A DNA stretch of 64,000 nt from Eubacteriales bacterium (GCA_045127455.1 JBGVQK010000044.1:24158-88157); one strand, 5' to 3'; shown: positions 25,699 through 30,191, counted from the stretch's first letter. Notes: a model not told the origin generated them from the letters alone. Numbers and translations: made by a program.

Positions 25699-26727
25699 AT
25701 GAGACGTGACATAATAAAAACAGCGGCTGAAATTTTTGCTTTTGCAAGTGTTGTCGGTAAAAAAGAGGCGGAGGGACCGCTTGGAGAGCTATTTGATTTG
25801 AAGGACACCACCAACCGTTTTGGAATGAAAACCTGGGAGAGTGCCGAGAGCGAGATGCAACGCCTTTCTTTGAACACCGCCCTTGCAAAAGGTAAGGTGA
25901 GCCCCCATGAGGTCGGTGCTCTTTTTGCAGGTGATCTGCTCAATCAATGCGTGGGCTCTGCTTACGGATTGCAGAGCTTTGACGTTCCGTATATCGGGCT
26001 TTACGGCGCTTGTTCGACCTGTGCCGAAAGCCTTTTACTCGCTTCGATCTTTGTCAGCTACGAAATGTGTAAGACCGCCGCAGCGGTGACATCGTCGCAC
26101 TATTGCTCTGCCGAACGGCAATATCGTACTCCTTTGGAGTACGGCGCGCAGAGAGCCCCCACAGCGCAATGGACGGCTACGGGAGCGGGGGCATTCCTTG
26201 TGCGAGAGGTAAACGAAAAAGAATTTCGAGTCGAGAGTAGCGCAGTTGTTCGTCGGTGCGTGATCGGGCGCGTGCAGGATAGCGGCGTTACAGATGCCGC
26301 CAATATGGGCGCGGCAATGGCACCTGCCGCACTTGACACGCTTTGCCGCTTTTTTCAAGAGAGCGGAATGCGCCCAGAGGATTACGACCTGATCCTGACG
26401 GGTGACCTCGGCTTTGAGGGGGGCGACATTCTTTGCTCCTTGATGAAGGCTGAAGGATATGATATCGCCCCCGTTTATAACGATTGCGGACGAATGATCT
26501 ACGATAGAGAAAAGCAAGACGTACACGGAGGCGGCTCGGGCTGCGGATGCTCGGCGGTAGTGCTTTCTGCCGATATTTTGCCAAAGATCAAAAGGGGAGA
26601 GCTCTCGCGCATTCTGTTTTTGGCAACGGGTGCAATGATGAGCCCCGATAGTCTCAAGCAAGGGGAAAAGGTGCTTGCCGTGGCGCATCTGCTTGAAATA
26701 GAACGTTTAACAAAGGGAGGCAAGTAA
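25699..26727 (+). CDS. spoVAD: stage V sporulation protein AD
   Basis: 342 aa with a thiolase-like pattern: ...VVGKKEAEGPLGELFDL...WESAESEMQ...YGACSTCAESL...HGGGSGCGCSAVV.... Confidence 0.9.
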   Translation: MRRDIIKTAAEIFAFASVVGKKEAEGPLGELFDLKDTTNRFGMKTWESAESEMQRLSLNTALAKGKVSPHEVGALFAGDLLNQCVGSAYGLQSFDVPYIGLYGACSTCAESLLLASIFVSYEMCKTAAAVTSSHYCSAERQYRTPLEYGAQRAPTAQWTATGAGAFLVREVNEKEFRVESSAVVRRCVIGRVQDSGVTDAANMGAAMAPAALDTLCRFFQESGMRPEDYDLILTGDLGFEGGDILCSLMKAEGYDIAPVYNDCGRMIYDREKQDVHGGGSGCGCSAVVLSADILPKIKRGELSRILFLATGAMMSPDSLKQGEKVLAVAHLLEIERLTKGGK

Positions 26728-27096
26728 ATGGATCTGCTTTTGACGTATTTGCGCGCCTTTTTGGTGGGAGGCATTTTTTGCGTGATCGCGCAAGTTCTCA
26801 TCGACCGCACAAAGCTCACCCCTGCGCGTATTTTGGTCACCTACGTTGTGGCAGGGGTCGTTCTTGGCGGAATGGGACTTTATAAGCCCATTGTCGAATT
26901 TGCGGGCGCGGGCGCGACGGTACCGCTTACGGGCTTTGGATATTTGATCTCTAAAGGCGTGAGGGAAGCGGTGGGAGAGCAAGGACTTCTTGGCGCACTT
27001 ACGGGCGGCTTGCGTGCCTCTGCAGGCGGAATTGCCGCGGCGCTTGTATTTGGATATCTCGCGTGTCTCATCGCGAAAGGGAAACCGAAGAATTGA
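26728..27096 (+). CDS. spoVAE: stage V sporulation protein AE
   Basis: 122-aa polytopic protein MDLLLTYLRAFLVGGIFCVIAQVLIDRTKLTPARILV...VPLTGFG. The ATG directly follows the spoVAD stop. Confidence 0.9.
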   Translation: MDLLLTYLRAFLVGGIFCVIAQVLIDRTKLTPARILVTYVVAGVVLGGMGLYKPIVEFAGAGATVPLTGFGYLISKGVREAVGEQGLLGALTGGLRASAGGIAAALVFGYLACLIAKGKPKN

Positions 27097-27121
27097 AAAA
27101 AGCAATGATGATATAAATCCA

Positions 27122-27346
27122 AGCCCTCCTCCGGGAGGAGGGAAGCTCCGCGCAAAGTCGTGGAGCAGGGAGGAGCCCACGGCATTTTAGAATAGTACTC
27201 GCCATAAAAAGAGCGCTTTACGTTCGTGCACGCAGGCTCCTTCCGTCATTTTCTTGCGAAAATGCCACCTCCCTCCCGGAGGGAGGCTATCAAAATCTGC
27301 CATTATGCAAAATTGAGCGCAATGACGATTTGTCACTGCGCTTGTT
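27122..27346. repeat. modular hairpin-rich intergenic element, copy 1
   Basis: The modules in order are: palindrome CCCTCCTCCGGGAGGAGGG; a variable hairpin; IR GGGAGGAGCCC; a 56-bp core; IR GGCTCCTTCC; a variable hairpin; palindrome CCTCCCTCCCGGAGGGAGG; and a conserved 55-bp tail ending in the hairpin GAGCGCAATGAC/GTCACTGCGCTT. Confidence 0.8.
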
Positions 27347-27444
27347 GTAGACCGAAACCTACGCGATAGTCGCGTGGTTGGGAAAAGGTTATGCCGATGA
27401 ATAGAAGGGAAACCAAAAGTTAACGCGGGATGTCTTTGCGAAAG

Positions 27445-27675
27445 AGCCCTCCTCCGGGAGGAGGGGGGACCGCGATAGCGGTGGGAGGAGCCCGCGTGTA
27501 CGAAAGAAAAGTACTTTTCCTATGGCGAGTGGTATGCGTGAATGCCGCAGGCTCCTTCCGTCCTTGCCGCTTGCGGCTTTGACACCATCCCTCCCGGAGG
27601 GAGGCTATCAAAATTTGCCATTATGCAAAATTGAGCGCGATGACTTTTGTCACCGCGCTTGTTTTTTATTTTTTT
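27445..27675. repeat. modular hairpin-rich intergenic element, copy 2 (core inverted relative to copy 1; tail hairpin followed by a T-tract, so a likely terminator)
   Basis: Same module order 323 bp downstream. The tail is nearly identical. The terminator stem shows a compensatory A-T to G-C change between the copies. Confidence 0.8.
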
Positions 27676-27676
27676 A

Positions 27677-29278
27677 TCAATCCAAATTGACTGCCATAGC
27701 GTGGCGCGCGTAGTTGAAGGAAAGGCTTACACCCGGCTCAAAGCCGCCAAAGGGAAGGAGCTCTTCTTCAAGCTCTTCAATACGCTCGATCTTGCCGTTT
27801 ACATACGCGAGGATACGCGCGCGGCAAGCATCGGTGCGGCGCATAATACCGCCAATGCGGCGGTCCTGCACCTCAAAGCCCTGCGGCTTGTTGTCTGTCA
27901 TCCACTGCTTTTCAAAGGCTTTGACAAAGATTCCAAGACGCTTGATGACCTCGGGATAGTCCTTTTCAGCCAAAGTGCGCAGAGTTTCCTTGTCGCCTGC
28001 CTCGTAGGCACGACGGGTGCGGAGCCCGAGTTCATATTTGATCTCCAGCACGTCGCAAAGCTTTGCGGCAGAGTCGAACACGTAGCCGTATTTGCGTGTT
28101 TTCTTTGCGGTAGCAGAGAGCTTTTTGGAGATCTCTCCAAATTTTGCACCCGCGCCGAGACTTACGCTGTAATCGAGGAAGTCGTTGAAGTAGTCGGAAA
28201 GCAGCATATACTTTGCAGGATTTTTGGGGTAGCTCGTGTATTCTACGATGTGGTTTGGCATATCGATTTCCATAAACTCGTCGTAATCAATGCCAAACAT
28301 TCTTTTGAACTTCGCCTTGATCAATGCCTCGTCGGTGTTGCCTTTGGCATACTCGGAGAGGTAGAAGAGAGAAGGAAGCTGTGAGAAGTGCGAGCACTCA
28401 CCGCCGTTATCGCCCCACATAGTAAAGAAGACGTTTTTGATCTTCTTCTCGCGGCAAGCGTCAAGAGCGGGCAGCATGGATTTGAGGGTGTAGCGGTTGC
28501 TGGGGATGAGTCCTATCCAGCTCCACGCGCCGCCTGCAAACCACGTATTTTTGGAGAGCTGCTTGTGATTTTCAAACATATCGCTGTAGCCCTGCTTGTT
28601 TGTGGTCCAATAATCCCAAAAAACAGGAATGACCTCAGGCGGGAATGCCTCAACCACTTCTTTGGGCATCTCGCACTTGGGGATATAGTATTTGCCGTTG
28701 TTCCAAGAACGGAAGAACATATCCGACCAGATCATGACCTCGTAATCATATTTTTTTGCGATCTCGCAAACGCGAGCAAGGTGACGCTTGATAATGGTGT
28801 TCACGGGCTCGTAGCCGTGAATGTCAAGATGCTTTCCGCGACCGAGATTGAACGCCTCATCCATACCGATGTGAATGCGACGGGTGCGGAAGCACTCGGA
28901 AAGAGACGCGAACATATGGTCGATAAACTCATAGGAGCGCTCGTCATCGGTCAAAATGACGTCGCCAAAATCAATGGGGAACTTGCCCCAACGAACAGCG
29001 GCAGTCAGATGCGCCAGCGTTTGAATGCAAGGAATGACCTCAATCCCCATCGAAGCACCGAGATCGTCAATTTCTTTGAGCTCTGCCTTGGAGTAGCGAC
29101 CTCTCATATAGCCAAAGTAGGGCTCACCGTCTACCTCGTAGGTGTCCTCGGTGTAAAGGAATACACAGTTGTAGCCCATTTTTTTGAGCAGCGGGAAGAA
29201 GCGTTTGAGTCCATCAAGGCTCATAACCGCGTTGCGCGACATATCAATCATCACGCCAAAGGTGTTGTAGTTTTTCAT
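27677..29278 (-). CDS. glycoside hydrolase family 20-like (beta-N-acetylhexosaminidase-type)
   Basis: FGVMIDMSRNAVMSLDGLKRFFPLLKKMGYNCVFLYTEDTYEV...EVIPCIQTLAHL...IHIGMDEA matches the GH20 catalytic TIM-barrel pattern as I recall it. AAAGGAG RBS. Confidence 0.75.
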   Translation of the reverse strand: MKNYNTFGVMIDMSRNAVMSLDGLKRFFPLLKKMGYNCVFLYTEDTYEVDGEPYFGYMRGRYSKAELKEIDDLGASMGIEVIPCIQTLAHLTAAVRWGKFPIDFGDVILTDDERSYEFIDHMFASLSECFRTRRIHIGMDEAFNLGRGKHLDIHGYEPVNTIIKRHLARVCEIAKKYDYEVMIWSDMFFRSWNNGKYYIPKCEMPKEVVEAFPPEVIPVFWDYWTTNKQGYSDMFENHKQLSKNTWFAGGAWSWIGLIPSNRYTLKSMLPALDACREKKIKNVFFTMWGDNGGECSHFSQLPSLFYLSEYAKGNTDEALIKAKFKRMFGIDYDEFMEIDMPNHIVEYTSYPKNPAKYMLLSDYFNDFLDYSVSLGAGAKFGEISKKLSATAKKTRKYGYVFDSAAKLCDVLEIKYELGLRTRRAYEAGDKETLRTLAEKDYPEVIKRLGIFVKAFEKQWMTDNKPQGFEVQDRRIGGIMRRTDACRARILAYVNGKIERIEELEEELLPFGGFEPGVSLSFNYARHAMAVNLD

Positions 29279-29327
29279 AGTTGTATTCTCCTTTGTGTTC
29301 AGGCTGGAATTATTCCGATGGTTTTTG

Positions 29328-29957
29328 TTATTTAAAAGACTCCATTAGGGTATCCAATTCTTCAAATGAGAGCACTTTCGGGTTATAATTTTGTTTGTCG
29401 TACCGATCAAAGAGGATAGACTCGATACCCATCTCTTTTGCAGCCAGTAGATTATTGATGCTGTCATCTATAAAAAGGCATTCATTTGCCTTTTTGCTTG
29501 TTTGCTGCAAAGTCAGCTCGTATATTTGAGGGTCTGGTTTTCTGCAGTGAACATCTCCGCTGACAATTTTGTGCTTGAAATATTTATCCAATCCAAAATA
29601 TTTTGTGATATATGCACTCCATTCGGAAACATCTGTGGATAATAAAACAAAATCATACGTTTGATAATATTTTTCTGCAAAGACAATAAATGAAGAGTCA
29701 AAAGAAAGATGGTTTTCGATATAATCTCTCATATGAAACTCTGTATCTTGATATCCCAACAGCGAAAGAAATTCGTGCGAACTGATTTCACCGTATCCTG
29801 CTTTGGTGAATAATCGTTCTTCCTCAAACTGCTTTTTCAAGCGTTCGTGCTCCGACTTGTCAAAATGAGAAAATGTATATGGGATAAAATTGCCTTTCGG
29901 TTCCTTCAAAATAACACCGTACATATCGATGACTATGGTTGTTACTTTCTTTTTCAT
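29328..29957 (-). CDS. HAD-superfamily hydrolase
   Basis: VIDMYGVI (motif I-like) and CLFIDDSINNLLAAKEMGIESILF (motif IV). GAGGGGGA RBS. Confidence 0.75.
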   Translation of the reverse strand: MKKKVTTIVIDMYGVILKEPKGNFIPYTFSHFDKSEHERLKKQFEEERLFTKAGYGEISSHEFLSLLGYQDTEFHMRDYIENHLSFDSSFIVFAEKYYQTYDFVLLSTDVSEWSAYITKYFGLDKYFKHKIVSGDVHCRKPDPQIYELTLQQTSKKANECLFIDDSINNLLAAKEMGIESILFDRYDKQNYNPKVLSFEELDTLMESFK

Positions 29958-29975
29958 TCTTTCCCCCTCTTATCA

Positions 29976-30184
29976 TCACCTCATCCGCCTCGCGGTGGCT
30001 CGGCACCTTCTCCTCAAGGAGAAGGCTTTTTGTTAGTGGCACCTCGAAAAATAGGATCTAGTAGTGTATGTTTGTTGACATATAAAGAAATTCGCGTGAC
30101 AGCAAATCAACTTTTAGCCTTCCCCTTGAGGGGAAGGTGGCAGGCTTTTGCCTGCCGGATGAGGTGACGGATGCAAAGCATCCG
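29976..30184. repeat. composite inverted-repeat element (hairpin-of-hairpins)
   Basis: The outer IR is TCACCTCATCCG (29976-29987) / CGGATGAGGTGA (30156-30167). Each arm is continued by a variable hairpin and a palindrome (CACCTTCTCCTCAAGGAGAAGG / CCTTCCCCTTGAGGGGAAGGTG). An extra hairpin CGGATGCAAAGCATCCG follows. Confidence 0.65.
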
Positions 30185-30191
30185 CCGAAAT

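Follow-up and report, generated by a model that had tools for sequence, protein, structure and literature searches.

How did two neighbouring copies of one DNA element come to carry the same central segment in opposite orientations? The question is raised by a 64,000-nt stretch from an uncultured Eubacteriales bacterium (GCA_045127455.1, JBGVQK010000044.1:24158-88157), hereafter the window, in which two hairpin-rich elements of ~230 nt (27122-27344 and 27445-27676) lie between spoVAE and a convergent gene for a GH20-family glycoside hydrolase. An earlier reading of this DNA (the sequence-only reading) described 56-bp cores that are inverted relative to each other between short inverted repeats, and suggested that the element might still invert or have done so in the past. 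The inverted relation is real. In addition, the elements are members of a dispersed, strain-variable repeat family, which that reading had missed, and the inversion of the core was probably one old event in the rearrangement of its hairpin modules.

Two elements with inverted cores

Each unit consists of seven modules, namely palindrome A (CCCTCCTCC-G-GGAGGAGGG), hairpin 1, a left inverted repeat (IR-L), the core, a right inverted repeat (IR-R), hairpin 2 and palindrome B (CCTCCCTCC-C-GGAGGGAGG), followed by a tail with a terminator hairpin (Table 1). All of the modules named in the sequence-only reading were found where it had placed them. IR-L and IR-R form a 10-bp central stem bearing the 57-nt core, and in both copies the inverted repeats around the core (GGGAGGAGCC / GGCTCCTTCC, plus an inner GCG/CGC) span 10-14 nt. 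The outer modules are collinear, with 96-100% identity between the copies. Palindrome A is directly repeated without mismatch (27122-27142 and 27445-27465, 21/21), as are IR-L (27168-27178 and 27483-27493, 11/11; 93% when extended to 27168-27181 and 27483-27496) and IR-R (27235-27244 and 27550-27559, 10/10; 95% when extended to 27231-27250 and 27546-27565), and palindrome B with the tail matches at 55 of 57 positions (27270-27326 and 27588-27644). Palindromes A and B are 88% complementary to each other over 17 nt, forming terminal inverted repeats. That palindrome A can pair with palindrome B, and that copy 2 has a conserved upstream part of ~100 nt, are additions to the earlier description.

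The core of copy 2 matches the reverse complement of the core of copy 1 at 40 of 55 ungapped positions, inverted repeats excluded. This is exactly the count that had been made by hand, reached here with a 1-nt shift in register, and the conserved blocks listed with it were recovered too. The direct orientation, in which no obvious similarity had been seen, gave a best score of 27. None of 20,000 shuffled sequences reached 40, the maximum being 30, and a repeat search with the inverted repeats included returned 27168-27244 against 27483-27559 (77 nt, 75% complementary). We rely on the ungapped counts because gapped global identities between cores carry a high background in the wrong orientation (43-67%). 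The idea that the cores are simply palindromic or unrelated was excluded, since neither core is a palindrome (22 of 56 positions match against its own reverse complement) and no shuffle reached the observed score. An assembly artefact was also rejected as the source of the flip, because the orientation of copy 1 recurs in independent assemblies (L011, L022 and L023). The 56-bp core of the sequence-only reading thus contains a real flipped segment, and its limits need a small correction: the core spans 57 nt from one 10-nt stem to the other, and the C at its start and the A at its end stay unflipped.

The repeat family and its core orientations

The search for further members that the sequence-only reading had proposed placed the family at seven or more unrelated loci in several species of metagenome-assembled genomes (MAGs) among uncultured Eubacteriales assemblies, with both core orientations represented. 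Among MAGs labelled 'Eubacteriales bacterium', a pattern search with palindrome B detected the family in four different species (L012, L013, L014 and L016), and one with the core found a metagenome contig (L021). Comparison of the translated element with a protein catalogue led from five spurious 'genes' (P0001-P0005) to the copies L022-L026; these 'hypothetical proteins' of 43-68 aa, with motifs APPTAIAVPPPPGGG or SPPPGGGGTAIAVGGA (PPPGGG-type), are translated repeat elements. The neighbouring genes are unrelated from locus to locus, except at L022 and L023, which are mutually orthologous. The family sample comprised ten full CCTCC-type copies. Copy 2 of the window shares its ~100-nt upstream 'spacer' (27347-27446) with L004 (99% identity) and with the unrelated loci L026 (92%), L025 (86%) and L021 (partial). 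A terminator-ended downstream part of ~140 nt is common to L021 and L025, and its start is present in L026, whose contig stops 38 nt in.

With the window + strand as reference, the F orientation of the core occurs at five independent loci (window copy 2 and L004 copy 2, L012, L021, L025 and L026) and the R orientation at two (window copy 1, equal to L011, and L022 with L023), so that orientation does vary among family members. The core is 56-57 nt long in both orientations, and its first C and last A are fixed in both, the turned segment being 55 nt. Orientation leaves the asymmetry of the stem unchanged as well, IR-L always reading GGGAGGAG.. and IR-R always ..CTCCTTCC. Because the stem asymmetry and the two end bases do not change, the breakpoints can be placed inside the innermost GCG/CGC of the stem; the stem-bounded segment is swapped for its reverse complement and the stem is kept. 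Judged from the sequences, inversion of the core, or its insertion in either direction, has happened.

It has not happened recently. Once normalised for orientation, the cores of window copy 2, L004, L025 and L026 are 88-98% alike and all of them are F, and the closest pair of opposite orientation (L021 and L022) is 78% alike, which shows that the core did not flip on the time scale over which copies spread. Orientation was also constant between assemblies, with two assemblies per locus: the window and L011 both have copy 1 as R, the window and L004 both have copy 2 as F, and L022 and L023 are both R.

The remaining modules are reassorted among copies. We counted four alleles of hairpin 1, five or more of hairpin 2 and at least four core types, in many combinations, and alleles of both hairpins are seen with either core orientation. 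Both hairpin types are common to window copy 2 (F) and L022 (R), and likewise to L004 copy 2 (F) and L023 (R), and the orthologous L022 and L023 differ in hairpin 2 with identical flanks. The distal central hairpin varies from a 9-nt loop (L001 type) through an unrelated 29-nt core (L024) and unrelated 35-40-nt cores (L013, L016a/b) to the 57-nt core, and half-elements and head-to-head pairs occur (L016, L030).

The family is also polymorphic between strains at the locus of the window. Among contigs with an identical SpoVAE, the spacer up to the GH20 gene is of three types, 121, 211 and 523 bp, and the window spacer (27097-27676) measures 580 bp. The 121-bp type (L002, L010) holds a single palindrome, GCCTCTCCCTCAGGGAGAGCC, and the same terminator; the 211-bp type (L001, L003, L005-L009) holds one related 'CTCTCC-type' element with a central hairpin loop of only 9 nt, oriented opposite to the window elements; and the 523-bp type (L004) holds a CTCTCC-type element and then a copy-2-type unit, with the same copy 2 as the window and a different hairpin 2. 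The contig of L011 equals the window through copy 1, the sequence of which is therefore found identical in an independent assembly. SRR25030078 carries copy 1 unchanged, and L004 belongs to ERZ27297778. Of two sister lineages with slightly different SpoVAE, one (L031-L040, in the same 90% SpoVAE cluster as the window type) has only a plain bidirectional terminator of 45 bp, and the other (L041-L050) has 233-261 bp of quite different hairpin modules. With a length anywhere between 45 and 580 bp in close lineages, the spoVAE-GH20 spacer is a hot spot of hairpin-module gain, loss and replacement. Empty sites retain one palindrome copy, as in the solo palindrome of L002 vs the palindrome pair of L001.

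The tail hairpin had been regarded as a selected RNA or terminator structure, and rightly so. It is the intrinsic terminator of the operon, present also in strains without elements and duplicated once in the window; in both L004 and the window the duplicates stand around the copy-2 unit. A 28-nt stretch of the copy 1 tail and terminator is 100% identical in L001-L010, which lack the copy-1 element type. The compensatory change from A-T to G-C between the copies is real (AGCGCAaTGAC...GTCAcTGCGCT vs AGCGCGaTGAC...GTCAcCGCGCT).

Relatives beyond the CCTCC type (L013, L016a/b and the L001 type) have the junction motif 'palindrome-GG TGGC [hairpin] TGAC GGA-stem' of the window elements and different cores. 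One of them, L016a (135 nt, L016 1196-1330), contributes 45 in-frame codons to hsdM of a type I restriction-modification system. Homologues in the PDB align with this HsdM only as far as the insertion point. Most close homologues have 497-500 aa without an insert, and others are longer at this very position by ~20 or 45-57 residues, in which peptides encoded by the palindromes (DSSLPEGA, DSSPKGGA, ASPSGGGA and the like) abound (proteins of the hot spot: P0006, P0012-P0014, P0060, P0062, P0086, P0087, P0110, P0118 and P0123). The hsdM site is an RPE-like hot spot, which concerns a related subfamily at one site in one gene family and is not seen for the window copies; between filled and empty hsdM alleles the flanks are too diverged at the DNA level to place the insertion boundaries. 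At the same hot spot L029 (about 1330-1400) carries a GTAG-headed, REP-like hairpin instead of the element. Such GTAG-headed hairpins (GTAGGGCG...CGCCCTAC, GTAGGGGGCATTCACGAATGCCCC; L029 and L014 3270-3600) form a second, different palindromic repeat family in the same lineages.

A third hairpin-module cluster of the window is related as well (Table 1). Its palindromes CCTTCTCC-TCAA-GGAGAAGG and CCTTCCCC-TTGA-GGGGAAGG stand on either side of ~90 AT-rich nt. The junction motif 'GG-TGGC-hairpin' follows, as in the window elements, and the inverted repeat CACCTCATCC / GGATGAGGTG encloses the cluster. L005 has this cluster at 96% identity, and L012 and L026 have parts of it.

Further partial or isolated occurrences were noted. 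Besides its full element, L024 has a second, partial one ~130 nt away; these 35 nt (425-459) comprise hairpin 2 with the first part of palindrome B and match window copy 1 at 100% identity. A family member in L013 (70-141 and 400-531) lies ~260 bp from a tRNA gene. An unverified human-faecal 'Bacteriophage sp.' contig (L030, MT835878.1 8720-8850) contains a half-element AACTCCTTCC with a hairpin and a palindrome, followed by a palindrome-hairpin module, and the same half-element type occurs 3' of the hsdS stop codon in L016 (2700-2760). A search of plasmids gave no match. Four matches to the core pattern in viral contigs were all chance matches inside coding sequence, as was a match in Austwickia (L015) in the genome scan.

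Table 1. Positions of the elements, their modules and the adjacent genes in the window
Feature	Position	Strand	Remarks
SpoVAD	25699-26727		upstream of spoVAE
spoVAE	26728-27096	+	last spoVA operon gene; Pfam SpoVAC_SpoVAEB 2.7e-35
Copy 1, five-hairpin (or four-way-junction) domain	27122-27288	+	fold -106 kcal/mol, z = -7.5
Copy 1, palindrome A	27124-27142
Copy 1, hairpin 1	27143-27167
Copy 1, IR-L	27168-27177
Copy 1, core (57 nt)	27178-27234	+	R orientation; reverse complement of copy-2 type core; orientation as in L022, L023
Copy 1, IR-R	27235-27244
Copy 1, hairpin 2	27245-27269
Copy 1, palindrome B	27270-27286
Copy 1, tail and terminator hairpin 1	27287-27344	+	stem-loop 27315-27342; weak T-run; resident spoVA/GH20 terminator hairpin
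Conserved spacer belonging to the copy-2 unit (~100 nt)	27347-27446	+	hairpin CTACGCGATAGTCGCGTGG at about 27358-27378
Copy 2, five-hairpin domain	27445-27606	+	fold -109.6 kcal/mol, z = -6.7
Copy 2, palindrome A	27447-27465
Copy 2, hairpin 1	27466-27482
Copy 2, IR-L	27483-27492
Copy 2, core (57 nt)	27493-27549	+	F orientation; majority orientation of family (L004, L012, L021, L025, L026)
Copy 2, IR-R	27550-27559
Copy 2, hairpin 2	27560-27587
Copy 2, palindrome B	27588-27604
Copy 2, tail	27605-27676	+	terminator hairpin 2 27633-27659; T-run 27660-27676; abuts GH20 stop codon
GH20-family glycoside hydrolase gene, convergent	27677-29278	-	Pfam Glyco_H_20C_C 1.9e-54
Third related hairpin-module cluster	30003-30190	.	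between HAD hydrolase and DUF218 genes

Both elements are situated on the sense strand in the 3' region of spoVAE, within the convergent spacer. In agreement with the earlier remark that the core holds no strong promoter, positions 26900-27900 contain no sigma-70-like site on either strand. Neither a recombinase nor a transposase was found among 20 genes tested between 16.7 and 39 kb (within ~10 kb of the elements); these are ordinary chromosomal genes, such as those for a PFL-like enzyme, an SH3 protein, SpoVAD/AE, GH20, HAD, DUF218 and endonuclease III. An exact look-up of the window GH20 protein returned no identical record. The gene content beside the locus (window 29279-30191) is polymorphic: L001 has MazG between GH20 and DUF218, L004 has both MazG and HAD, and the window and L005 have HAD only. 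Open reading frames run through the elements (27420-27611 on the - strand, 27430-27582 on the + strand), and the catalogue 'proteins' that match them are translated elements. A coding role of the core was rejected: ATGGCGAG... opens reading frames in both copies, and these lack ribosome-binding sites, differ in frame context and are not conserved. The host belongs to an uncultured, spore-forming Eubacteriales lineage. Assemblies with the repeat family are Oscillospiraceae-like, and relatives of the HsdM from one MAG are recorded under Oscillospiraceae or Ruminococcaceae.

How the cores may have been turned

Folds of single sequences pair palindrome A with palindrome B into a four-way junction, at about -106 to -110 kcal/mol and with z about -7 on either strand. 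RNAalifold, applied to 14 family members, returned five local hairpins, with each palindrome folded on itself and the central stem formed; both the palindromes and this stem show compensatory changes. Hairpins 1 and 2 keep a hairpin fold in every variant. As the palindromes are perfectly self-complementary and the A-B cross-pairing always includes mismatches, the safest description is that of five consecutive hairpins able to close into a junction.

We propose, with a probability of about 0.6, that the elements make up a family of dispersed, non-coding repeats similar in kind to REP/BIME, BOX, miniature inverted-repeat transposable elements (MITEs) or RPE, the hairpin cassettes of which are rearranged by template switching or recombination, and that the core inversion was one such old event. 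The family lives in transcribed spacers near terminators, with a related subfamily in a tolerated in-frame hsdM site. Its repeats are gained and lost between close strains and nested in or beside pre-existing hairpins, and their hairpin tips are traded as cassettes among copies. The 55-nt distal part of the central hairpin would have been turned round at least once via the 10+3-bp stem arms, either because replication switched template within or between strands or because one arm recombined with the other, and both orientations would then have persisted and diverged. Template switching inverts hairpin loops and builds or extends hairpins (PMC8794818), and we infer that the flip came about by one of these routes. 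Any function would probably be exerted through transcribed stem-loops, as structure in a 3' or 5' untranslated region (UTR) or as a terminator-proximal barrier, and not as a switch.

Several observations weigh against this proposal. The documented loop inversions by template switching are mostly 4-8 nt (PMC8794818), compared with 55 nt here. There is no transposase among the 20 nearby genes and no target-site duplication at the element flanks, and a donor copy was not identified either, so that we call the family mobile from its distribution only. No short direct repeat is shared by the flanks of nine elements compared, and the end palindromes themselves resemble a duplicated target. The 64 kb hold only this locus and the one related cluster, no further copy being found by blastn and pattern scans. 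Finally, the sense of the adjacent genes corresponds to the window + strand at all seven independent CCTCC-type loci (~1% by chance), and the + strand folds more stably than the - strand in nine of ten members. These two biases suggest that the structure of the elements in transcripts is either tolerated or under selection, and they fit a strand-specific role as RNA at least as well as they fit selfish DNA, if not better.

A structured non-coding RNA or cis-acting UTR element, produced from the + strand, is an alternative that we consider less likely. Its junction stems would be functional and its hairpin tips, including the core, free to vary, the orientation of the core being either irrelevant to the RNA or the mark of two RNA variants. 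Besides the biases in sense and stability, the latter accompanied by more G-U pairs on the + strand, the very strong folds and a conserved G.U position in the central stem are consistent with such a role, as are the intrinsic terminators behind the units of the window, L021 and L025 and the position of the element 65-75 nt upstream of a start codon in L012, L022, L023 and L024. The strand indicated by the G-U/A-C asymmetry is no more than suggestive, the central stem having one wobble on each strand, and the - strand of the spacer has a terminator-like hairpin too, so that this signal does not settle which strand is transcribed. The distribution argues against this reading, as presence varies among strains with identical SpoVAE, the plain 45-bp state occurs in a sister lineage of the same 90% cluster, and the element is not kept at orthologous loci. 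Moreover, the CTCTCC-type relative at the same locus is oppositely oriented, hsdM contains another relative that is translated, and reverse-complementing 55 nt would give a completely altered RNA sequence. No promoter-like site was found in 26900-27900, and no Rfam family matched.

A broader and rather speculative possibility is that 'hairpin-in-hairpin' cassettes enter the loops of terminators, palindromes and the central stem in either orientation, duplicating the target hairpin, which would amount to a mode, not described so far, of assembling and propagating structured DNA or RNA. A 45-bp terminator could in this manner have grown stepwise into a 580-bp multi-junction structure, and HsdM could have been lengthened in frame likewise, driven by some structure-specific enzyme or by a templated form of replication.

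It is doubtful, more specifically, that the two core orientations go back to independent insertions of a 55-nt cassette, either way round, into the loop of the central hairpin with no flip in place, as one further level of such nesting. The replaceability of the distal central hairpin by loops and cores of other lengths agrees with it, and so do the larger units that stand between duplicated hairpins (the L002 palindrome paired in L001, the terminator hairpin doubled in L004 and the window). Against this, no free-standing 55-nt core was seen outside a central hairpin in the sequences compared; the data do not separate insertion from inversion in place.

That a recombinase encoded elsewhere actively flips the core between the inverted repeats for phase variation is very improbable: the 10-14 bp inverted repeats do flank a segment that occurs both ways round and has the same exact limits each time, and trans-acting invertases can be encoded far from their sites, so that a distant enzyme is conceivable despite the lack of one within ~10 kb, but no promoter-like site was found in the region on either strand, opposite cores are at best 78% alike and the four-locus cluster at 88-98% is all F, orientation did not differ between the two assemblies available for each window site or between L022 and L023, and the segment lies between convergent genes, 3' of a stop codon, with nothing obvious to control. 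The proposed invertibility thus stands historically, being in line with both orientations in the family, equal core length and the same stem asymmetry, and does not stand as an active, site-specific, phase-variable switch, for which a near-identical F-R pair, a promoter and a nearby recombinase are missing.

Relation to known repeats and meaning

The repeat family proposed here as the setting of an old core inversion resembles several known systems in part. BIME/REP clusters of enterobacteria and BOX of Streptococcus pneumoniae are likewise short, non-coding repeats of hairpin modules in variable number and orientation, found in transcribed intergenic spacers and at operon 3' ends, strain-variable and with very stable predicted folds. 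The present family shares their combinatorial modules in intergenic, transcribed positions; the resemblance is one of kind only, with no sequence similarity claimed and a different host lineage, and the family differs in its five-hairpin or four-way-junction design, its paired end palindromes and a distal segment in both orientations. The GTAG-type head of REP/REPIN is absent, the family elements beginning AGCC-CCTCC.... With the RPE of Rickettsia it has in common palindromic repeats of ~100-150 bp between genes and in frame within genes, here in the hsdM relative, although sequence and host are unrelated and the in-frame case is one hot spot that does not involve the window's own copies. MITEs (Correia/NEMIS, bcr1, RUP) are similarly small, with end inverted repeats, presence/absence polymorphism and strong hairpins when transcribed. 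The family has terminal inverted repeats and dispersed copies with such polymorphism, but it differs in that no short target-site duplication and no matching transposase or parent insertion sequence was identified, in that each end is a full palindrome and in that 'empty' sites keep one palindrome.

With respect to the turned segment, small inversions bounded by stems are classic in chloroplast spacers. Hairpin-loop inversions of the template-switch class likewise reverse-complement a stem-bounded segment, leave the stem in place, use no enzyme-specific site (PMC8794818) and recur in both states among related sequences. The inverted core fits this class of mutation. The family departs from the documented cases in the length of the segment, 55 nt vs loops of 4-8 nt, and in being a repeat family whose modules also recombine.

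Invertons, such as fimS and the switches of Bacteroides and C. difficile, also have inverted repeats flanking a segment that exists in two orientations. The label fails here on promoter, nearby recombinase and recent switching; the assemblies show no locus with two orientations, and the opposite copies are old and diverged. Known inverton switches are about 150-700 bp long, several-fold longer than the core. The smallest known spacing for recombinase-mediated intramolecular inversion or excision is about 75-82 bp, for FLP and Cre in vitro, and to our knowledge 55 bp is shorter than any segment known to be inverted by a site-specific recombinase; the literature searched on size limits of invertons held nothing usable.

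Given that no tested sequence relation, GTAG head, short target duplication or identified transposase links it to one, we do not assign the family to any named family. Covariance models of Rfam 15 (E<=1) gave no match in window positions 26000-29000 and none over the elements at ten related loci, the only matches at those loci and in the window region being tRNAs and sub-threshold terminator-like ones, and the literature searched on MITE and REP families in Clostridia contained no usable account of such repeats. With no counterpart in Rfam or in the literature searched, the repeat family is previously undescribed.

These results document a repeat family in an uncultured, gut-type Clostridia lineage and show that terminator-proximal spacers are rebuilt fast, from 45 to 580 bp within one 90% SpoVAE protein cluster. 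They also advise caution in screens for invertons, as inverted repeats together with two orientations among paralogues can reflect an old hairpin-mediated rearrangement, and in gene calling, as five spurious catalogue 'proteins' are translated elements. If the nesting mechanism were true, the locus would show how, in nature, templated mutation can give rise to complex RNA-like structure.

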